Notes under the pieces: generated by a model | The model's database searches: none | Seen by the model: the letters and a program-made list of their open reading frames with translations, nothing else | What the model was told of the DNA's origin: nothing | Made by a program: the position numbers and the translations under genes | Part shown: positions 20,227 to 32,000 of the stretch, piece after piece | Position numbering within the stretch: the first letter of the stretch is position 1 | Layout: every line of letters starts with the position of its first letter | Assembly (NCBI GenBank): GCA_003144275.1 | Contig: NJBF01000011.1 | Span: forward strand, 61,042-93,041 | Length of the DNA stretch: 32,000 nucleotides | From: Candidatus Heimdallarchaeota archaeon B3_Heim | GTDB lineage: Archaea; Asgardarchaeota; Heimdallarchaeia; Hodarchaeales; Hodarchaeaceae | Reading direction: 5' to 3'

Positions 20227-20649
20227 TTGGTTTTGAAATTGCCGTTTTGGGTTTATATGTTACTCGTAGGAAAAAAATCCAGTGGATATAATCGTAAAAT
20301 TTACACGGGGTACACACATCATCTTGTGAATCGACTTACCCAACATATTGGCTTAAATAGTGTAAAAGGTGCACGGATAACTCGTAAACAGCCAATTGAG
20401 CTTGTGTATCTGGAAAAATTTTCTTCTCGTAAACTGGCTCTGAAGCGTGAGTGGGATTTCAAACATACAAGTCCAATAAATCAAAAACCGAATAAGCTTA
20501 GTCTAATAAAAGAGTTCCAAACAAAGAATGCGGACATTTTAAAGGATTTAAATACGACTTTTGAGGAACATTATCAATTTCTTGAAACTTTGACAATTGA
20601 AATCAAAAAAATTGAAAAGGGATTTGAGCGACGATTAACACCAAAATAG
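20227..20649 (+). CDS. GIY-YIG nuclease (UPF0213/SLX1-like)
   Basis: VYML...IYTGYT..LVNRLTQH...GARITR...ALKREW pattern; TTG start, exact start uncertain. Confidence 0.85.
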   Translation: MVLKLPFWVYMLLVGKKSSGYNRKIYTGYTHHLVNRLTQHIGLNSVKGARITRKQPIELVYLEKFSSRKLALKREWDFKHTSPINQKPNKLSLIKEFQTKNADILKDLNTTFEEHYQFLETLTIEIKKIEKGFERRLTPK

Positions 20650-20724: not shown

Positions 20725-22062
20725 ATGGTAGATCCTTTGTTAATTGGTGCCTTCTTTATTCTTCTGATATGTCTGATCATGATTATTCGTTTCACAGAGA
20801 TCATTCCATACCTTTATATCTATTTTACTGCCAGGAAAGATCTTCCAGTCAAACTTCCAAGTGATTTTGGATTAGAAGCTACCTCCATCTCTTTTCCTGT
20901 TAAAGGTAATTTACAGAAAGCTTGGTTTTTTCCCAGTAAGCAAGAAAATGATGCTACCATTCTTATGATCCCAGATTGGACAAATGAACATTCTTTAGAA
21001 AACAGTTTGAAAACATCTGGAGTATTTCAAATCATGGGATTTAATGTCTTACTCCCTATTATTCATAACATTGATGAATCAACGCGTCTTCTTCTAAAGA
21101 AGAATTTTTCAACTCGATATTATTCGCTAATAATCCTAAAGGCGTATGAATACCTCATCTTACGTGATAATCTTAATAAACGGAAAATTGCTGTGTACAG
21201 CCAATCATTCAGCACACTATTAGTAAGTACCTTAGTAAAAGATCAACCGATCCGAGCTGTCATTCTCGATAATGGACCTGTTTCGTTAAATATTCTAATT
21301 GCTCGTAAATTACCCTATGCGGGTTTTGGTGTCTCTCTCTTAAGATTCTTGACCCGTTTGATTTTGTGGCCTTTCACGTGGAGAACACGATGGAATCTAA
21401 AATATTCTCTCTCCATGCTCCATTCCTGTCCTACGTTCCAAATATCAGTTTTTGATCATAAAAATATGCCTAACAAGAATATTTTCAAAATTTTTACGTC
21501 CTTATATAAACCTAAGCAGCTTTGGCTTGAAGATGCTCTTCTACCATCTGGTGGGATTCGGGATACTTGGCCAGATGAATATTTCTCACAGTTAAATTAC
21601 TTCTTCAACCGATGGTTAAACAAAGAACCCGCTCCTGAGTGGCATTGTGAACTGCAGGTTTCAAAGCTTGGGAAAAGAGAATTTTCCGCGTCACTTAGAG
21701 TTTCAGCTCTCCCTCCTCAAATGGAGCATATTCCCCTTCGTATAACATTGTCTGATAAAAAAAATCGACTAGTCCATGAACGAGTATGGTTTTTAGGGGC
21801 AGAACAAACATATGAATTTCAACTACCATTTCGTCCTAGCTTTAATTCATTATTACCCTATTTAAATGTCGAACGCGTCAATAATAAGAGTATTCCATGG
21901 GTAAAGCTTGATGCTGAAGAAGCGTTAAAATACACAGTTCATACAATTGTTTCTCTCAAGCTATCTGAATTGATAGAATACGAAAAACGGTACTTTAAGA
22001 CCAAAAAAAGGATTTCAACTGATATAGCACTTGAAAATACGGAAGAAATTACGATACCTTAG
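20725..22062 (+). CDS. Membrane-anchored alpha/beta-hydrolase-fold protein with degenerate catalytic motifs
   Basis: N-terminal TM helix, LQKAWFFP, ILMIPDW (in place of hLHGW), IAVYSQSFS (in place of GxSxG), IRAVILDNGP; extra beta-rich C-terminal region. Confidence 0.6.
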   Translation: MVDPLLIGAFFILLICLIMIIRFTEIIPYLYIYFTARKDLPVKLPSDFGLEATSISFPVKGNLQKAWFFPSKQENDATILMIPDWTNEHSLENSLKTSGVFQIMGFNVLLPIIHNIDESTRLLLKKNFSTRYYSLIILKAYEYLILRDNLNKRKIAVYSQSFSTLLVSTLVKDQPIRAVILDNGPVSLNILIARKLPYAGFGVSLLRFLTRLILWPFTWRTRWNLKYSLSMLHSCPTFQISVFDHKNMPNKNIFKIFTSLYKPKQLWLEDALLPSGGIRDTWPDEYFSQLNYFFNRWLNKEPAPEWHCELQVSKLGKREFSASLRVSALPPQMEHIPLRITLSDKKNRLVHERVWFLGAEQTYEFQLPFRPSFNSLLPYLNVERVNNKSIPWVKLDAEEALKYTVHTIVSLKLSELIEYEKRYFKTKKRISTDIALENTEEITIP

Positions 22063-22477: not shown

Positions 22478-22936
22478 ATGACAAGTTTGTTACAGGATCC
22501 CCATTTAGTTATCTACGACAACTTATTTTTCGGATTATCACTGGGTAAGTACGATATCAATTTGATTAAGGAGTTTGAATGGATTATAGAAGAATTTGTG
22601 TTAGTTAGACAAGTATACAAAGATAGGGTACCTCAATTAGAATTGATATTACCTTACTATACAGTAAAAGCATTTACTATGATATCCAAGAGTAAAAACA
22701 AAAGATTCCTTGAAAATAGTGGTTTATTCATTCAGTTCATCAATTACTCAGATCTAACAAATCGAGAATTGATTGGATTAGGTCTAAGAATTACTTCGAA
22801 TACTAAAATTACCTTACAAACCTTCGGTGCCTCTTCTGAGGATCGTATTCAAAAAATTATGTTTCTCCTTTCAAGAGGTTTATTGAAGTCTCTATTTCAC
22901 AGGATAGAACATGAAGATATTGAAATAATTATTTAA
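22478..22936 (+). CDS. Hypothetical protein
   Basis: 152-aa ORF, not overlapped by longer ORFs, with GAGGA upstream; no recognised motif. Confidence 0.6.
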   Translation: MTSLLQDPHLVIYDNLFFGLSLGKYDINLIKEFEWIIEEFVLVRQVYKDRVPQLELILPYYTVKAFTMISKSKNKRFLENSGLFIQFINYSDLTNRELIGLGLRITSNTKITLQTFGASSEDRIQKIMFLLSRGLLKSLFHRIEHEDIEIII

Positions 22937-23048: not shown

Positions 23049-23915
23049 ATGGTTGAACTACTAGATCTTGTTGTTCAAGGCCTTAGTGATTTCATACATT
23101 GGTACACTGTAGGCGTTCAGGGAGAGGATCTTGTAGATTTTTTTGTTAAACAATTTTCTTATTACTTGTTGCTCCAAATCATTCTTTATTTTCTCCCCTT
23201 CTTACGAAGGATATTAGTTATTTTTTTTCTTCCCTTCCGATGGATTCATGTCTATCTTCATGTGTACACAGCTAAACAAATTTTAAAGGAAATTGAATCT
23301 CGTAAGGAGTTAGGAGAAAAAGAACCAGTTATTGATACAGGGAGTCTCCGTGCATCTTTAATTTCAGGTATAGATGTTTCAGACGAGAATCCTGGATTAC
23401 TTATGGGTTTTAATCGATTTGAATATGCAAGACGAGTAGCCTTCGCACCCAATAAACTTGCTTTTGCAATGTTGCTAGGCTATCTTATTGTGACCCCATT
23501 GATCTTTGCTGATACAGGTATTCTTTCATCTCAAGTGGGAGGAATGGTCCATTTGTACCTCTTTATCGGGATTTTTGGGGTATTAATGCCTAGTATTAAC
23601 GATTGGTATTTTATGATTCATGCTTTGATGATAAACCTCCAAATTAGACCATTTTGGTTTTACAACGCTATAATTGTGTATGTTGTTTTCACGTTTGATA
23701 CGCTTTGGAGAACACAGAATTTTTTTCTCTCCATTCTTTTGGGAACATTATGGTTTGTAGTATATGTTATTGGTTTATTTGTGGTAGGATATATCGCTCA
23801 AGGTGGGAAAGTAAAAAAACCAGTTTTTTTCTGGGTACCTACTGAAAAACCGATACAGAAATTCACAAAAAAGGCAGATATTGATTTCCTCTCTCTAGAA
23901 GACCTAGATTACTAA
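23049..23915 (+). CDS. Integral membrane protein resembling M50/DUF3267-like metalloproteases, with HVYLH in place of HExxH
   Basis: TM-embedded RWIHVYLHVY, VAFAP, and LMPSINDW (PSxxD-like third-ligand motif). Confidence 0.55.
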   Translation: MVELLDLVVQGLSDFIHWYTVGVQGEDLVDFFVKQFSYYLLLQIILYFLPFLRRILVIFFLPFRWIHVYLHVYTAKQILKEIESRKELGEKEPVIDTGSLRASLISGIDVSDENPGLLMGFNRFEYARRVAFAPNKLAFAMLLGYLIVTPLIFADTGILSSQVGGMVHLYLFIGIFGVLMPSINDWYFMIHALMINLQIRPFWFYNAIIVYVVFTFDTLWRTQNFFLSILLGTLWFVVYVIGLFVVGYIAQGGKVKKPVFFWVPTEKPIQKFTKKADIDFLSLEDLDY

Positions 23916-23926
23916 GCTGGATTTAA

Positions 23927-24646
23927 CTATCCTAAATCCTTATCTCTATCCAAAAACAGTTCAATAGTGGTTGATCCAAGAAATTGATTGTATACATAGA
24001 AATCTAGTGAGGATCCATTACTAGATTTATGCAATACTGATTTTGTCATACAAAAAGGATCTATTAATCTATCTTTACTTGCTAATTCCTTTGAAGCATC
24101 GGAAAAAGCATGATGAGCAATGATGATAGGTAAGTTTCTTCTAATAGCGATTTTTCTAAGATCTAACATAAAATTAAAGATATTTCGTGTCCATTTTTTC
24201 TTAGATTCGCCAAAAAGCTCAATAAGTTGCATAGGTGAACCAAATATTGTGTCTAAAATTAGTAGGGAAATATCTGAATACTGTCCCTCAACAATTTTTT
24301 TAATTAGGATGATATTCTCTAAAAGAGAATTTGGGTGGAAAAAATTTACTTGATCCAGAAATTCTTCACAATTCAAAGTTCTTTTGAGATTCAGATATCG
24401 AATATTTCCTGAAAAATCCGAATAAATAACATTCGCATTCCGATCACTAATGAGTATTGAGTTAATTGCCTGTTGACAGAACCACGATTTCCCGACTCCC
24501 GATTCACCTAAAATCGAATGAATTTGTCCTGTACTAAGACCCCCTATAAGATTATCAATAATATCAATACCCATCGTGATTTTAATGGATTTTTCTAGCT
24601 CTTCATTTATTTCTTGAAGACTTTTAACTCTATCAATGGTTTCCAT
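23927..24646 (-). CDS. RecA/RadA-family ATPase, RAD51-paralog/RadB-like (no N-terminal HhH domain)
   Basis: ITMGIDIIDNLIGGLSTG, Walker A GESGVGKS, VIYSDF, Walker B LLILD, LRKIAIRRNLPIIIAHH. Confidence 0.85.
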   Translation of the reverse strand: METIDRVKSLQEINEELEKSIKITMGIDIIDNLIGGLSTGQIHSILGESGVGKSWFCQQAINSILISDRNANVIYSDFSGNIRYLNLKRTLNCEEFLDQVNFFHPNSLLENIILIKKIVEGQYSDISLLILDTIFGSPMQLIELFGESKKKWTRNIFNFMLDLRKIAIRRNLPIIIAHHAFSDASKELASKDRLIDPFCMTKSVLHKSSNGSSLDFYVYNQFLGSTTIELFLDRDKDLG

Positions 24647-25098
24647 TATGAGTCAACTACAAAGCGTGTGCATTCGTTTGCTGGAAACAGATCTTTGGAA
24701 ACGATAACAATAACGACCATTGAAACTGCTAATTTTTTAAGGTATGTCCAATTTTCATGGTTGTTAGTACACAATGGCGGATAATTCACAATCAGCGAAG
24801 AAAATCCATTTTTCAAGTATGTTGAAAGCTCATTTGAACCAAGAACTTGCTTATAATCCTCAATTGACAATATTTCCATAAAAGAAAACTTATTTTCCAA
24901 GGATTTATACCGACGAAGTATATGGTAAAAATAAGGTAACGGAACTACTCGGAAATCAATCCATAATATTTTGGGAATCACCCATTCTTCGATTCTAGCA
25001 GTCATTAGAAGACTCACACACTTGTAATAATCCCCTATCAAGACATTTGGTTGAGTTAATGTCGTAGATTGTTGATGAGAATTCACTGGGTTCTTCAC
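24646..25098 (-). CDS. Hypothetical protein, probable degenerate RecA-fold (inactive RAD51-paralog-like)
   Basis: Co-linear similarity to the neighbouring ATPase (KILWIDF/NVIYSDF; SSLIVNY/SLLILDT; LKKLAVSM-VVIVIV/LRKIAIRRNLPIII); no P-loop; coupled by overlaps at both ends. Confidence 0.55.
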   Translation of the reverse strand: MKNPVNSHQQSTTLTQPNVLIGDYYKCVSLLMTARIEEWVIPKILWIDFRVVPLPYFYHILRRYKSLENKFSFMEILSIEDYKQVLGSNELSTYLKNGFSSLIVNYPPLCTNNHENWTYLKKLAVSMVVIVIVSKDLFPANECTRFVVDS

Positions 25099-26153
25099 AT
25101 TTTTCCTAAGTCTGAATCTATGATTCGATCGTCTTTTTCAGAAAGTTCCTCCTGATAGACATAATAATATGGAATCCCAAACAGAATGAAAATCAGTACT
25201 GGAATCATTATAAATCCAGGAATGGGATGACTAACCGACTCTAAATTGTTATTTAATGTGTTAATTTCCTTCAGAAGGCCATAAGCTCTAATAGAAATAC
25301 TTATTGTAGAATAATCATCAGTAGAGGAAATTATCGGGATAATATAGAGATTAATATGCCAAATCTGGTTTTCAAGATCGACTTTATTGACTGTTGAATT
25401 TATTCTTACAACATTCCCATCTATGGCATGATTTCTTCCCGTTCCAAGTGCTATGTAATCAAATTGTCCACCTTTAATAGTAATTTCAAGAATTGATGAA
25501 AGATACAAATTATCAGGAATATCCACAGGAAGTAGACTTTTTGTAAGTATTTTTTTACCAAAAAATGATATTTGTGACGGTTGAAGAGCATATTGGAAGT
25601 TGCTAGACAAAATCATCAAAGATTGTTCACTAAGGGGTTGTACAAGATCAACTGCATGAACAGTTGCCGAAAATATTATGAAATTATATTCCACTTCGCG
25701 CCAAGATATGAGGGAGTCTAGATACATGGAAACAGAAACGGAGAGTATTTCTTGATATGAATAATTTAGCGGAATCATCAATGCCTGAGGTTGATCAAAC
25801 TGATAAACAAGACAATTCTTAAGGCCTTCTCTTTCATTACTTGAAAAAACGTGATCTGTGATAATATCATTAATTTTGATTGTAGTTAAGATAGTATCAA
25901 TTGGTTCTCCAAAATTTTGAATGGATAAATTTAGAAATAACTTATCCCATGGTCTAGACAAGACAATAAAACGATTAAAAGTTAATTCTGGCTTATCCAT
26001 TGTATAATTAAAGTTCAAATCATACGAACTAGATTTACTCTCTTGTTGCTGGAGTGTCTTGGCCAAATCTCCTTTACAAATTACTGTTATTCCCTGGATA
26101 ATAATTAATAAGATACCTAAAGTGATAATTTGTTTCTTATCTATCAGAAGCAT
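25095..26153 (-). CDS. Hypothetical membrane-anchored extracellular protein
   Basis: N-terminal hydrophobic signal/TM, beta-rich middle with NxT/S sequons, C-terminal TM (PGFIMIPVLIFILFGIPYYYVY). Confidence 0.7.
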   Translation of the reverse strand: MLLIDKKQIITLGILLIIIQGITVICKGDLAKTLQQQESKSSSYDLNFNYTMDKPELTFNRFIVLSRPWDKLFLNLSIQNFGEPIDTILTTIKINDIITDHVFSSNEREGLKNCLVYQFDQPQALMIPLNYSYQEILSVSVSMYLDSLISWREVEYNFIIFSATVHAVDLVQPLSEQSLMILSSNFQYALQPSQISFFGKKILTKSLLPVDIPDNLYLSSILEITIKGGQFDYIALGTGRNHAIDGNVVRINSTVNKVDLENQIWHINLYIIPIISSTDDYSTISISIRAYGLLKEINTLNNNLESVSHPIPGFIMIPVLIFILFGIPYYYVYQEELSEKDDRIIDSDLGKM

Positions 26154-26156
26154 TCT

Positions 26157-26723
26157 TCAATAACTCCAAAATAATGAAAGGAACATTCTTGCACAATTTA
26201 AGGAAAAAATGAATAACCCCAGATAACCCAAATTCTTATTTACTCTTGGATCATTGAACGGGATTCGAGCAATACGTATTCGTTTTGTATTTCGGGGGAG
26301 GGTCCAATGAAACTTGTAATGCTTAACAGGATGATTACTAAAGACAGATCGTTTTCCTAAAGGTAATCCCCCGGGATTTAATGAATCTATTAATAAATGT
26401 GAAAGCCAACTTATTGTAAATAATATTATTACAACTTCTAAAATTGTTACATTAGATTTCTGTCCAAGATAAAGGAAGGGAAGGAAATAGAAAACTGTCC
26501 AAGGAGAGTGTGTAAGAGGATGTCTATTCCTTGTTAATAAAACACCCTCATTTTCATATTGAACATTAACATATCGATCTATGATATTCGGAACCAAACT
26601 GAACAAACTGGTAATCGTTGATAGTACCATAATTATCCAAGAGGAGAACATCTCCTCTACTATCAACATCCCATATAAATTTGTAAATCCGAGCGAGAAT
26701 AGATAATGAGTAATATTTTTCAT
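26157..26723 (-). CDS. YdjM-like membrane metal-dependent hydrolase
   Basis: N-terminal TH, LVPNIID, RHPLTHSP and WLSHLLIDSLNPGGLPL match the family's His/Asp pattern. Confidence 0.8.
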   Translation of the reverse strand: MKNITHYLFSLGFTNLYGMLIVEEMFSSWIIMVLSTITSLFSLVPNIIDRYVNVQYENEGVLLTRNRHPLTHSPWTVFYFLPFLYLGQKSNVTILEVVIILFTISWLSHLLIDSLNPGGLPLGKRSVFSNHPVKHYKFHWTLPRNTKRIRIARIPFNDPRVNKNLGYLGLFIFSLNCARMFLSLFWSY

Positions 26724-26728
26724 TTAAT

Positions 26729-29700
26729 TCACGGTTCCCTTTTTCGAAGAACTGTATTACCGAGAGCGACAAGACTAGCAAAAAGTCCTCCTCCGATACC
26801 TATTTCGATCAAGTCATTTATACCTGTATCCAAATTAACCTCTTTTCGAGTACTTGTCTGAGAAGTTAGATCCGGTGGGTCTGTTGTATCTATTGTTCCA
26901 GAAGTAGTAGTAGTGGTTTGATCAATCGGACTCTGGACGTATAAATTCGTTAAAAATTCCGTTGTTTCTTGATTTATATCATCTATTACTGATAATTGAA
27001 GAACATAGGAGCCTTGAGTTAAAAAGAAATCAACGGATACGTACGAATTATTTATCTGAGTGAATGGAAATTCGACACCATTAATGTACAGAAAAGCTTC
27101 TATTCCATCAAAATCATCAAATACTTGGACGTTTAATCGATAGAGGATCCCAGTGGATGTGTTATCAAGGATTACTAGGGATGATGCTCCTATCTTTGGA
27201 GGAGAATCCGTTGAGTTAAAAAACCCAAAAAACTGACTTGAATGTCCATAAATATCGAATACAGTTAGATTATAATTCCAAACATTCGGAGTTAACCACG
27301 GAGAAGTGAATTGCCAGATTTGATAGCTTCCTGTTGTTGATTCATAAATTAAAGTTCCATCAGCAATGAAAACTTGAGACCCACTTTCGATTGCTAGAAA
27401 GGGATTATCAGTAGAAAGTGATGCATTTACCTTCTCAACTCGAATTTCAAGATTAAACCCATTTCTTTCGAATTCTGATTCCACTACAATGATATGGGGG
27501 GCATACCACAGAATTTCAAAATCTCTGCTAGCAGAAGGCTTGTCATCCCATGGATACCATATGTCTAACCTAAGAGTGTAATTTTGTGGGTTGCAGTAAA
27601 CTTGTGTGTACCATTGATCACCAAAATAATTACTTAAACTGTAATTCATACCATCAAGCGTTACCTGGACAAGATTAAGGTCAAGAGTTTGTGAATCGAT
27701 CGTTGTTCTTAATTCATAATAAGTCGATTCCCATGAAACGGACAGAGAATTGATAGTTGGCTGTGGTGGATACCAACTTTCAAGAAATAGTCTAAAATCG
27801 TACTTATTTTCAGCTGTGTGGGCATACAAAGAGATTTCCCATTGGCCAGGGGAAGGAAACTGAAATTGAATTCGATAATCCCGCTGAAACGCATCCCATT
27901 CCAACACCCCAAAATGGCTCCCATTCAAATATATTCCGACTTGTTCGAAATATGGATTTGATAATATCTCTGTACTTAGGAGATAGTTTCCAGCAGAGTC
28001 AATTTCTGTGAGATACGAATTAGTTAAAAGATCAACTTTTTCTACCACAGAAAAATTTACTTGCGCTGATATAAAGTTCCCAGCAGAGTCAAATGAATAA
28101 GCATTGAGTGAATAACTGCCAATGGGTAAATACAGTACTAATGATGTAGTATATGTCTGATTAGTATTATTTACTTCTGGAATACAATATAGGATTGTTT
28201 GACCATCTGAATTGATGGATAAAGGTATTTTTTCAATATAGGTGTAATTATAGGGGGAAAAAATCGTTAGAGAAGGAGCAATTGTATCAATATTGAAAAT
28301 TGAGGTTTTAATGACAAAATTCTCAGCAGTATCTCTAACCTGAATAGTAACGTTGTGATTTCCTTCAGATAAGTCAGTTAAAACGAAACCTGAGCTTCCA
28401 ACGATTGAAGTATCATCTAAAAAAATAAATACAGTTTCTTCATCGGTTAAAAATGAAAGTGAAATAGAATTCGTTTTGTATGACTCATTCTTTGGACTTA
28501 TAATTACTAATGAAGGCGCAGTTGAATCAATCCTGAATGATGAAGAAGCATAAGATAACGCCCCATAGGAATTTTCACCATAAACATGACAAGTATATAA
28601 CCCCTCAGGTAAGTCACGATATGCAGTATCCGTCCACGAGCTATTCGTTTGATCAAGAGGTTCAATAAAGTACCAATAACTCACAGCATCTCCTCGGAAA
28701 GATAGCTCTAATATAGATCCATGAATAGAGTTGTTGACAGGTGAAAGAATTTCTATCGTAGAAGGTAAAGAATGAATTACAATTGAAAATTGAGGACTAA
28801 ATGAGGTATTGAAATAATCTTCGAATTGTAAAGGCACTTTTACAGAAACTGTATAGATTCCAGGCTGATCAAATGAAATTATGAAATCGAAGATACCTGC
28901 ACCATTTGTAGAATCAACCCCATTCTCCATCCCACCCATCAGTAGAATCGTATCTACTCCCATGATAGGACCCGAAACTTCTCCTATAACATTACCATCA
29001 ATATGAATTGACATATTCACAAAAGCTTCTCCAGGAATGCTTACAGAAATAATTAGGTCTTCAAAAATTGTTACTTGATAATGAAGAATCCGATAATAGA
29101 CGTATGTATCATTACTAATTATGGAAATTTCTTTTACTCCTCTGTTATTGAAGCTATATGAGTATGAATGTTTTCCTGCTGGTGACCAGTCTCTCCATAA
29201 TTGACCCCCCATCCAAATCTGATAAACTTCCGTACAGTTAACTGTAAATAAATAATTATCATTTACATTTCCATAATCACCACCGATTACTTCAATGTCA
29301 GCAGTACTGTACATGAATGTATGATCATATTTAGTATTCGTACCATTGAGATTTGAAGCTCGTAAAGATAATCCACCTTTGTAATAAGGTGTTGTCCAAT
29401 TATAATTTCCTAGTCCAGAAGCATTCAATGCGATTACGGCGATAAAATTCCAGGTACTCTCTCCATCCCGTTGCCAATAAAGGGAAATATCTTCATTCAA
29501 CCCACCTTCTAGTTCTATCATTGTCCAGTGATTTGAGAGGATGGATCCTTGAATCATAACTGAAAGAGGAGGACGAATCGTGATAGAAAAAATTGCTGGA
29601 CTAATTGACTGTAAATAAAAAGCTCCTACATTCCCTTGATAGCTGCATTGTAAGATATGTACTCCTATTTGGGATGATACTGTCACAGAATAGTCAAAGA

Positions 29701-31543
29701 AAAATAGTCCTTCTACATCAGAGGTGACAAAACCCAAAAATTCTCCAGTCGTCGTATCAGTAAAGTGGATTGCTTCATTGATTACAGCTTTTCCACCTTC
29801 GTCAAGCAAATACCCCCAAAGACGGCATGATTGCCCATTAATCACTTCTGTTGAATTTTGATTCAGAGAACTAAAATGGGGAACCGAAAACACAGTTAAT
29901 TTTAATGTAGTAGCTCCTTCATCATAATTTTCGGAATTATAGAAATGGACAAGGAGGTAAATATCACCTAAGGAGTGATCATTACAGATGTGATAATTAA
30001 AAATAAGTCCTGATACGCAGCTCTGAGTATCAATAATAGTAGAATTACTGTACTCCAATGAGACTAACCCCTCATTAATTGTTACACCTCCCGAGTGAAC
30101 TGTCACTTGAATCTGAGTATCTGTGTTTCGATTAATCCCTCCGCTTTCATAAGTCAAATCAAACTCAATTAACCCCTTAATAGATACTAGAATTATACTT
30201 GAGACTGCGAGAATATTTGGTGTTACATCAAATACTCGGAGTGAAAATTCATGGTTTCCGATGCTGATTCCTTCTGGAAGAGGATAATTAAAGGCCACAT
30301 ATCCATCTGAGTTAGTAAATTTATTCATCAATGAAATATTCCCATCAGTTAAATCTCTGAATTCTACTTGACACGTAACGGGAACAGTATGTATATCTTC
30401 TAATGTGATGTAGGCTTCGAGATGAATTGTTTCATTTTGCCTATAATCTGAAGAATTCAAATAATATTGGATCCGAGCACGATCCTGTATTGTAATAGTT
30501 GATGAGACATTAGCATATAACTCGTACTGGTCATTTTTTAGCTCCGTGTAAATCGTTAGTTCACCCAAGGGAATTGAACTTTTAGGTGAAAACACTATTT
30601 GATTATTTCGACGATAAATCACTTTTTCTGTAAGAATCATTGGTTGTGAGCCAAGTAAATAGTATATTGAGAGCAATAATCCATTTGGATTATCTCCAAG
30701 AATTGTGGTATTGATAAAGACTGATTCTTCGGTCCGTTGAAGTTTTGTCGTATTAATAGTCTGGTAAAGCCAAAATCCCGAGCTCAAGACCGTTACATTG
30801 ACAGGGTTTGATGTACAGGGAGATGTTTGGCTTTGAGAGCTACCAGTATAGCTCGCATAAAACTGTGATTTTCCGACAACAGAAAACACAGGAATATTAT
30901 AATCAAACTCAAGCGTCAAAATTGCAGGATCAGTCCCTGGATAATAGTTTTCTAATGGACCATAGGTATAAATTACTGGAGCTCCAGTTAAATTAACATT
31001 AATTACAGTGATATACCCTCCTTGGAACCACCACCTATAATGAATAAATAAATTAAGAGTAAAATGGAGTGAAGCATTCCTATAAACGGTCGTTGAGTTC
31101 ACAACTAGTTGTAAAGATGTTGAACGAGTGCTGCCAGGACTAATCTCTTCAAATCGAACATTGCACGATCCATCAGAGGAAAGATATCCCAAAAAACCAA
31201 GATATTCAGCGAGGAATAAATGCTCTCCAGATTGAATTGGCGATGGTACAATCCAGTCAACTTCCGCTGTACCATTGGTAATCATTGTCTCAATAAATTC
31301 CCCGGTAAAAATATCTGTTAATCGTATTTGTCCAAAAGGTACAGAGTCAAAACCTGCGTACGTCCAAATAGAAAAGCGAATCACATCACCTGAACCCACA
31401 ACCCCTTTATCAGCTAGAACTGTTGTCGAAGTCTCTTGATCAGTAGCACTAACCTGGTTAACTCCTATATTTACTAAGACAAACAATCCGAGGACGAAAA
31501 TTAGAATCAAAGTATTTTGTATTTTTCTCTTTTTTTTCCACAA
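26729..31543 (-). CDS. Large cell-surface protein with Ig-like repeats and C-terminal TM anchor
   Basis: Basic N-terminus plus signal helix, recurring xxG[H/E]xhxhxYxG strands, D[ST]xAPSLxIxSPxNx[ST]Y repeats, many sequons, Thr-rich linker, terminal TM plus RKREP; TTG start. Confidence 0.85.
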   Translation of the reverse strand: MWKKKRKIQNTLILIFVLGLFVLVNIGVNQVSATDQETSTTVLADKGVVGSGDVIRFSIWTYAGFDSVPFGQIRLTDIFTGEFIETMITNGTAEVDWIVPSPIQSGEHLFLAEYLGFLGYLSSDGSCNVRFEEISPGSTRSTSLQLVVNSTTVYRNASLHFTLNLFIHYRWWFQGGYITVINVNLTGAPVIYTYGPLENYYPGTDPAILTLEFDYNIPVFSVVGKSQFYASYTGSSQSQTSPCTSNPVNVTVLSSGFWLYQTINTTKLQRTEESVFINTTILGDNPNGLLLSIYYLLGSQPMILTEKVIYRRNNQIVFSPKSSIPLGELTIYTELKNDQYELYANVSSTITIQDRARIQYYLNSSDYRQNETIHLEAYITLEDIHTVPVTCQVEFRDLTDGNISLMNKFTNSDGYVAFNYPLPEGISIGNHEFSLRVFDVTPNILAVSSIILVSIKGLIEFDLTYESGGINRNTDTQIQVTVHSGGVTINEGLVSLEYSNSTIIDTQSCVSGLIFNYHICNDHSLGDIYLLVHFYNSENYDEGATTLKLTVFSVPHFSSLNQNSTEVINGQSCRLWGYLLDEGGKAVINEAIHFTDTTTGEFLGFVTSDVEGLFFFDYSVTVSSQIGVHILQCSYQGNVGAFYLQSISPAIFSITIRPPLSVMIQGSILSNHWTMIELEGGLNEDISLYWQRDGESTWNFIAVIALNASGLGNYNWTTPYYKGGLSLRASNLNGTNTKYDHTFMYSTADIEVIGGDYGNVNDNYLFTVNCTEVYQIWMGGQLWRDWSPAGKHSYSYSFNNRGVKEISIISNDTYVYYRILHYQVTIFEDLIISVSIPGEAFVNMSIHIDGNVIGEVSGPIMGVDTILLMGGMENGVDSTNGAGIFDFIISFDQPGIYTVSVKVPLQFEDYFNTSFSPQFSIVIHSLPSTIEILSPVNNSIHGSILELSFRGDAVSYWYFIEPLDQTNSSWTDTAYRDLPEGLYTCHVYGENSYGALSYASSSFRIDSTAPSLVIISPKNESYKTNSISLSFLTDEETVFIFLDDTSIVGSSGFVLTDLSEGNHNVTIQVRDTAENFVIKTSIFNIDTIAPSLTIFSPYNYTYIEKIPLSINSDGQTILYCIPEVNNTNQTYTTSLVLYLPIGSYSLNAYSFDSAGNFISAQVNFSVVEKVDLLTNSYLTEIDSAGNYLLSTEILSNPYFEQVGIYLNGSHFGVLEWDAFQRDYRIQFQFPSPGQWEISLYAHTAENKYDFRLFLESWYPPQPTINSLSVSWESTYYELRTTIDSQTLDLNLVQVTLDGMNYSLSNYFGDQWYTQVYCNPQNYTLRLDIWYPWDDKPSASRDFEILWYAPHIIVVESEFERNGFNLEIRVEKVNASLSTDNPFLAIESGSQVFIADGTLIYESTTGSYQIWQFTSPWLTPNVWNYNLTVFDIYGHSSQFFGFFNSTDSPPKIGASSLVILDNTSTGILYRLNVQVFDDFDGIEAFLYINGVEFPFTQINNSYVSVDFFLTQGSYVLQLSVIDDINQETTEFLTNLYVQSPIDQTTTTTSGTIDTTDPPDLTSQTSTRKEVNLDTGINDLIEIGIGGGLFASLVALGNTVLRKREP

Positions 31544-31710: not shown

Positions 31711-32000
31711 ATGATAGCAAATCAAGAAATACACTCGTTAGAAAACAGACTCCGTCACTATCCCTCACGGACAGTCCAAGTTTTTAAAACTACCCATCTG
31801 GCCCGTATTCTCAGAAAACACATTCACGAGACAGATGCCGACAAAAATCGGAAAGAATTTAGCTGCGAACAGTGGATTAAAGGTCTTTCCTTGATGCAGA
31901 TTCAGAAATTCGAAGCGGTACGACCCTTTGTGCGACAGCTAGAGCAAAATAGATCCTGGCAAGCTATTTGTGGTTATCAAGGAAACGTACCCACTCAAGG
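31711..32000 (+). mobile_element. 5' part of a DDE transposase (IS5/IS1182/IS4-like, DUF772-type N-terminus), truncated by the window edge
   Basis: Open frame MIANQEIHS...FSCEQWIKGLSLMQIQKFEAVRPFVRQLEQNRSWQAICGYQGNVPTQ resembles the transposase N-terminal pattern K.L.L...R...L..N..W...CG...VP; absent from the ORF track. Confidence 0.7.

Follow-up and report, generated by a model that had tools for sequence, protein, structure and literature searches.

Recombination in eukaryotes depends on heterodimers of divergent and partly inactive Rad51 paralogs, and the Hodarchaeales belong to the known archaea that are most closely related to eukaryotes. To our knowledge no archaeal pair made of an ATP-binding RadA relative and a dedicated dead partner has been described so far. 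Here we analysed two adjacent genes, which we call S and A, in a stretch of 32,000 nucleotides (the window; contig NJBF01000011.1, positions 61,042 to 93,041) of Candidatus Heimdallarchaeota archaeon B3_Heim. The window is the end of a contig, and the uncultured Hodarchaeales (Asgard) genome that it comes from is 3.95 Mb in size and 94% complete. A preliminary description, made from the DNA sequence alone, had read the two genes as a translationally coupled pair of divergent RAD51-paralog-like proteins; the coordinates it gave for both open reading frames (ORFs) and their 1-nt overlap agree with the sequence, as follows.

23927..24646 (-): gene A, 239 aa, ATG start; a RadA/RadB-family P-loop protein without the helix-hairpin-helix (HhH) domain
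24646..25098 (-): gene S, 150 aa, GTG start; an orphan partner, possibly a RecA-like core without the P-loop
24644..24648 (-): stop/start overlap of S and A, TAATG in the sequence, with one base common to both genes

Several described systems come close to this pair. The crenarchaeal RadA paralogs of the aRadC/Sso0777 and Sso2452 type are HhH-less RecA-family accessories in archaeal recombination, and we know of no heterodimer with a dead partner among them. Sso0777 is reported to be damage-inducible (PMC2175319). Like A, archaeal RadB (TIGR02237) is a core-only RadA relative of ~220-240 aa with Walker A/B motifs and no HhH domain, and it has been shown in Haloferax volcanii to be a recombination mediator (PMC5480776); unlike A, it keeps the catalytic Glu of DTEG. 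The sampled Asgard RadBs do not have the N-terminal segment of A, a strand resembling the RadA polymerisation motif, the Phe of which is inserted into a hydrophobic socket of the neighbouring monomer during RadA/Rad51 polymerisation (PMC5480776). Nor do the examined Asgard RadBs have a translationally coupled small partner, being followed by CarS instead.

The eukaryotic pairs (RAD51D-XRCC2 in BCDX2, Rad55-Rad57 and Csm2-Psy3 of the Shu complex) resemble S-A in joining one nucleotide-binding subunit to one reduced subunit and in docking through a strand N-terminal of the core, the latter being a prediction for S-A. Recent PDB entries among the matches are titled as paralog complexes capping RAD51 filaments. 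However, there is no orthology between these pairs and S-A, which was found in one archaeal genus only and is encoded, unlike them, in a surface-protein operon, and the RecA fold is only suggested for S. The N-terminal domain of BcsE (PF10995) is similar to S in having no functional Walker A, in belonging to a cell-envelope system and in making protein-protein contacts. Its predicted fold is RecA-like, the Walker A being degenerate (PMC7439463). BcsE is a bacterial regulator of enterobacterial cellulose secretion (PMC7439463) that is fused to REC*-GGDEF* and senses c-di-GMP, while the archaeal S stands alone with its 150 aa and has an ATPase as its partner, and PF10995 gave no match to the 15 S members at E up to 1.

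S and A behave as obligate partners, and this pairing is well supported. In all genomes carrying the two genes S sits directly upstream of A, and nearly every species of the genus has them overlapping (ATGA, TAATG, GTGA or TTGA) or at most 4 nt apart. Using six-frame searches of 83 genomes of the class, we found S in 17 of the 21 other species of its GTDB genus and, outside the genus, only two chance-level fragments. A is likewise present in 17 of the 21 other genus genomes, its family being found in this single GTDB genus only. The two genes are intact in 16 of the 21 species, and in G064 both have in-frame stops. S and A are jointly absent from three species, i.e. G065 (99% complete), G058 and G050, all of which keep in place the genes found around the pair elsewhere: a RadA paralog and the genes of a 1604-aa surface protein, a YdjM-family hydrolase and a 352-aa protein. 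G058 and G065 are sisters in the tree of the 1604-aa protein and G050 is on a separate branch, and hence S and A were lost together in two independent events. The ratio of nonsynonymous to synonymous substitution rates (dN/dS) is 0.16-0.47 for S, reaching 0.69 for the closest pair (with few substitutions), and 0.18-0.52 for A. S is under purifying selection, and both S and A are real genes given these values and their intact state across the genus. The translational coupling claimed earlier is conserved and, with the strict co-occurrence and the two joint losses, supports the obligate pairing.

The preliminary description had also set a predicted interface as a check on its idea of a heterodimer. 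Our complex prediction for S and A scored 0.66, compared with 0.00 for the best of three controls. This mark is reached by 58 of 80 solved complexes and by 2 of 110 mismatched pairs, these counts being rough (own alignments used). One of the three runs for S-A scored 0.00; at least 1% of the contacts are common to the runs, and the partner predicted local distance difference test (pLDDT) value is at least 44. The contacts with the lowest error join A residues 6-10 to S residues 71-75, within the two strands listed below. In structures of RAD51 with BRC4, the FxxA motif docks on the strand after the equivalent of the IDTEG strand. The genetics and the controlled prediction together lend good support to a putative S-A heterodimer.

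24611..24634 (-): N-terminal strand of A, residues 5-12, which aligns with the RadA polymerisation motif
24862..24888 (-): predicted acceptor strand of S, residues 71-79, with contacts in the complex model; it aligns with the RadA strand after the IDTEG strand

The description of A as a 239-aa ATPase that has Walker A/B motifs but lacks both the HhH domain and the catalytic Glu of RadA was accurate. The motifs are as follows.

24485..24508 (-): Walker A of A, GESGVGKS, residues 47-54; G47, G50, G52 and K53 are invariant in 15 species
24251..24265 (-): Walker B of A, LLILD, residues 128-132; D132 is invariant
24407..24424 (-): YSDFSG of A, residues 75-80; Ser79 is at the position of the catalytic Glu of IDTEG in hhalign alignments to the RadA/RadB profiles

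A has the RecA-type ATPase core fold with ~25 residues ahead of it, and our hidden Markov model (HMM) scan found no HHH_5 match in the protein. The column of the catalytic Glu has S, N, G, Q, R, K or C in the 15 aligned A members, and Glu in only one of the 15.

The profile matches and the tree indicate that A is a strongly derived member of the RadA/RadB family and not of KaiC/ArlH. Pfam Rad51 (PF08423) gave 22.7 bits in hmmscan of the protein, with a gathering threshold of 22, and 20.1 bits in the six-frame genome search, below the cut-off. The NCBIfam RadB model (TIGR02237) is the best match for all 15 A members (best E 6.9e-16), 10 of which also match the NCBIfam RadA. We aligned A by hhalign to profiles assembled from Asgard genomes and obtained 99.4% (E 5.7e-21, 220 columns) for the Asgard RadB-like profile, 98.7% (E 1.8e-16, 213 columns) for the RadA core profile and 96.3% (E 1.8e-9, 60 columns) for the KaiC-like profile. 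A had been called distinct from canonical RadB. That holds insofar as the window A has 40 bits (E 3.7e-10) against TIGR02237 and does not reach its curated cut-off of 172.4; but the closest profile is that of Asgard RadB, and hence A is best read as derived RadB/RadA-like and not as something separate.

We built a tree of 53 sequences (LG+C20) that takes in the A family, RadA, short Asgard RadB-like proteins and KaiC-like proteins. The A family is monophyletic (100/100) with a stem branch of 2.69 substitutions per site. In the maximum-likelihood tree the RadA clade (98/98) does not include it, four of the five sampled KaiC-like proteins of the window genome are separated from it (100/97), and it stands in an unresolved grade with short Asgard RadB-like proteins. 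No canonical RadB was found in the window genome or in the genus genomes searched, and it is therefore attractive to take A as the RadB ortholog of the genus; neither the tree nor approximately unbiased (AU) tests settle this. Separately, the window genome (G000) encodes a second short RadA/RadB-like protein of 202 aa (L079:1465-2073, contig C80:58225-58650 region), which has a degenerate Walker A (GLPGTYKT) and a long branch in the tree and is unlinked to S or A. It is possibly another inactive paralog.

The N-terminal segment of A is placed by hhalign on the RadA polymerisation motif, which reads FxSAxEIL in the RadA paralogs of the Heimdall class. The pattern in the A family is hydrophobic-x-S/T-L/F-x-D/E-I-L. 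Compared with FxxA, A has V/L-x-S/T-L/F, with Phe changed to Leu, Val or Ile and Ala changed to Leu, Phe or Ile. Most annotated A homologs begin at least 12 residues later than the window A. The longer N-terminus is probably the real one, since in nearly every species an in-frame start overlaps the S stop, in one of the four forms given above, or lies within ~4 nt of it.

S is an orphan by all profile searches. Neither S alone nor its 15 homologs match Pfam, NCBIfam or PADLOC, and the S profile has no match among the PDB sequences at E up to 10. A 15-sequence profile searched with exhaustive HMMER against 1.84 billion representative proteins retrieved 17 matches, all from its own family and none longer than 153 aa. 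The link to A and to RadA comes from profile-profile alignment. The hhalign probability of S against A is 0.3% with shallow alignments and 1.7-3.5% with deeper ones (P 0.029 falling to 0.012), over a long alignment of 101-108 columns. An independent RadA-core profile aligned to S with P 0.015 over 101 columns in the same register, in which KILWIDF falls on VVWIDTEG and FSFMEILS on the strand after it, GFSSLIVN is matched with the Walker B strand and VVIVIVS with VVTNQ. The first of these elements is as follows.

24949..24969 (-): KILWIDF, S residues 44-50, which aligns with VVWIDTEG of RadA and VIYSDF of A; W46 is invariant in 15 species

The controls with reversed S gave P 0.28-0.75 and short alignments, and S showed no signal against Asgard RadB (P 0.16) or KaiC-like proteins (P 0.93). 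The match of S to the RecA family is suggestive rather than significant, the probability given by hhalign itself being 1.7-3.5%. S had been said to be co-linear with five core elements of A. Statistical significance is not reached for this claim; what stands is the length of the alignment and the recurrence of its register against the RadA core.

The ESM-feature neighbours of two S homologs, one of them 22% identical to the window S, are all clusters of the RecA/KaiC superfamily, i.e. BcsE (0.90-0.92, with 166-179 shared features), KaiC-like (0.88), Rad51 (0.87 and 0.82) and ELP6 (0.82), and the window S itself has no usable ESM-feature match. S has an alternating beta/alpha pattern. A low-confidence S model in the ESM Atlas has P-loop-type neighbours at template modelling (TM) scores of 0.46-0.55, and the AlphaFold2 (AF2) model of S, with pLDDT 44, is unusable and matched nothing. 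We consider it rather probable that S is a dead paralog of the RecA type. In the register of the alignments, the conserved VLIG-DYY of S might correspond to strand 1 joined directly to helix 1, the P-loop having been lost.

The reading that we put forward, tentatively, is that S and A form an obligate heterodimer serving as a recombination accessory of the RadA set of the genus. The two proteins would be co-translated as its subunits, with binding and geometry as predicted by the complex model. A would still bind ATP through its intact Walker A/B motifs, and with the catalytic Glu lost it is more likely to be a nucleotide-dependent switch than a motor. It would keep a short hydrophobic strand ahead of its core, at the position of the RadA polymerisation motif. 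S, most likely a remnant of the same fold without the P-loop, would offer an acceptor surface for this strand and have neither a donor strand nor an ATP site of its own, so that a closed two-subunit unit might form instead of a filament. Such a unit might act as a mediator or filament-end cap for the expanded RadA set, like RadB, Rad55-Rad57 or RAD51D-XRCC2; a role as recombination mediator is plausible. A more specific and quite improbable form of the idea is that S-A is an independently evolved Hodarchaeales cap terminating RadA filaments by the donor-strand/acceptor-socket logic of human BCDX2/CX3. In that form A would accept the polymerisation motif of RadA and give its own motif to S, and the dead S would end the chain; a shared transcript with a giant adhesin-like surface protein would link cell-surface contact or DNA exchange to recombination.

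Several points weigh against a recombination accessory. The adjacent RadA paralog is on the opposite strand and ~7 kb away, and a gene order shared inside a single genus says little about function. The tight co-oriented packing with three surface/membrane genes (5, 3 and -4 nt) points to a membrane-related role, and three species do without the pair. The complex model may simply echo RAD51-like docking learned in training. As to the origin of A, the AU tests reject neither A with RadA (p 0.32) nor A with RadB (p 0.08). The recombination framing of the preliminary description does not explain the place of the pair at the tail of a surface/membrane operon.

That place is the starting point of a competing explanation, a serious one though somewhat less likely, in which S-A senses ATP or has a regulatory task as the cytoplasmic module of the surface system, docks on the short cytoplasmic tails of the membrane proteins and has no role in recombination. 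[quoted passage not shown] However, three species, one with a 99% complete genome, keep the three upstream genes while lacking S-A, and hence the surface system does not need the pair. The nearest families of A are recombination proteins and not signalling ATPases of the KaiC/ArlH type, and no S member matches Pfam BcsE. The packing itself is not diagnostic, since Asgard RadB genes are equally tightly packed with the gene of CDP-archaeol synthase, a membrane enzyme without an evident link to recombination. If the pair nevertheless serves the surface operon, it would join BcsE as the second instance of an envelope system that has recruited a degenerate RecA-like domain.

Two further explanations concern the identity of the subunits. 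S could be a small alpha/beta adaptor or inhibitor, specific to the lineage and unrelated to the RadB/RadA-like A that it binds, so that the two would not be paralogs. Small orphan partners are common, the AF2 model of S is not confident, and no significant sequence, profile or structural link joins S to RecA-like families. We consider this unlikely in view of the same long collinear register against two RecA-family profiles, at which the reversed controls fail, of the mostly RecA/KaiC-superfamily neighbours of two divergent S homologs, and of the P-loop-type neighbours of the low-confidence ESM Atlas model. It is very improbable that A is instead a KaiC/ArlH-type ATPase acting in motility or clock-like signalling. 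The automatic Joint Genome Institute (JGI) annotation names three family members 'archaellum biogenesis ATPase FlaH', and there are weak matches of the P-loop region to ArlH/FlaH and KaiC_arch (E ~5e-4 for the window A, best 6e-6 among the 15 members). But these matches cover residues ~22-78 only, with 19.5 bits against 215 for ArlH (NF052589), and Pfam KaiC (PF06745) gives 21.6 bits against 26.6 over residues 25-61 only. The 60 columns of the KaiC-like hhalign alignment compare with 213-220 for RadA/RadB, A is apart from most sampled KaiC-like proteins in the tree, and no neighbouring gene at the loci examined has an archaellum-family match. A defence or toxin-antitoxin reading was rejected as well, the sole PADLOC match being that of A to mad8 (E 5.5e-5), which is weak and lies in the P-loop.

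The pair had also been proposed as an archaeal precursor or analogue of the eukaryotic paralog heterodimers. Precursor is not supported, because the two families are confined to a single GTDB genus, evolve fast and are dispensable, having been lost in two lineages; analogue is a fair description. S-A looks like a local invention rather than an ancestor of the eukaryotic pairs. If S is indeed a P-loop-less RecA-like core bound through the strand of A, the two proteins would be a small and tractable model pair, and would show how paralog caps or mediators can arise from a recombinase by losing the HhH domain, the catalytic Glu and the P-loop, along a path convergent with that of eukaryotes and not ancestral to it.

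The RadA repertoire of the genus is unusual as well. Its species have about five full-length RadA paralogs (G057, G062, G049 and G054; L001:1903-2919, L069 and L071-L074), in two score classes against Pfam Rad51, ~300 and ~240-250 bits. One full-length paralog, with HhH and Rad51 domains, lies divergently upstream of the 1604-aa gene, ~7 kb from A, in all relatives examined that have this flank assembled. This operon-adjacent RadA has a degenerate polymerisation motif, with LKKG or LKPG where the other paralogs have FxxA, and judging by this motif it may not polymerise in the usual way. Its ortholog is not among the contigs of the window genome, the three RadA paralogs of which are 38-41% identical to it. 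The window contig ends where the relatives carry this gene. Its last 290 nt (31711-32000, +) open an ORF with weak, sub-threshold matches to transposase N-termini (DUF772, E 0.009; DUF4372, E 0.014), and a mobile element is probably the cause of the break in the assembly. The operon-adjacent RadA of G065, a species that has neither S nor A, contains an in-frame TAG (G065:C27:125799-126818) that could reflect a pseudogene, a sequencing error or recoding. An apparent fusion of RadA with the 1604-aa gene in G055 (L070, C1 ~2979400-2980200; a 1964-aa frame) was discarded as spurious, the frame crossing a stretch of N where scaffolds were joined; this 'single-contig' assembly is 70% complete.

Short RadB-like genes (140-193 bits) are present in many other Asgard families. 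At the loci examined, in several of these families, the RadB-like gene is followed by a gene of CDP-archaeol synthase (CarS-like, E 6.1e-58), usually at 3-50 nt or with a short overlap (L081:1468-2708, L082, L083, L087, L090 and L091), and in some families RadA is within ~2 kb of RadB. RadB-CarS(-RadA) looks like a conserved neighbourhood. The position of A near a RadA gene could be an inherited linkage, since RadB is near RadA in some of these families.

S and A form the 3' tail of a minus-strand run of five co-oriented genes, encoding proteins of 1604, 188, 352, 150 and 239 aa, whose order is syntenic in the genus. The three genes upstream of the pair are as follows.

26729..31543 (-): first gene of the operon, a 1604-aa surface protein with Ig-like domains (Big_13, E 3.4e-8); syntenic
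26157..26723 (-): a 188-aa YdjM-family membrane hydrolase (Pfam YdjM, E 5.7e-8, 32.9 bits against a gathering threshold of 29); syntenic
25095..26153 (-): a presumably bitopic membrane protein of 352 aa, with hydrophobic segments at either end

The 1604-aa protein has a hydrophobic N-terminus and a C-terminal hydrophobic anchor. The 352-aa protein has no family match in the HMM scan; its gene is syntenic throughout the genus and is kept where S and A are lost. The start of S overlaps the stop of this gene by 4 nt, the GTG lying inside ATGTGA.

Downstream of A, in convergent orientation, a 288-aa hydrophobic orphan (23049-23915, +) is 83-87% identical in close relatives. It is far more conserved than S or A and is absent at this position in some species. 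Further downstream on the plus strand are a 152-aa orphan (22478-22936), a 445-aa orphan (20725-22062) and a protein with a GIY-YIG nuclease domain (20227-20649, E 2.8e-12).

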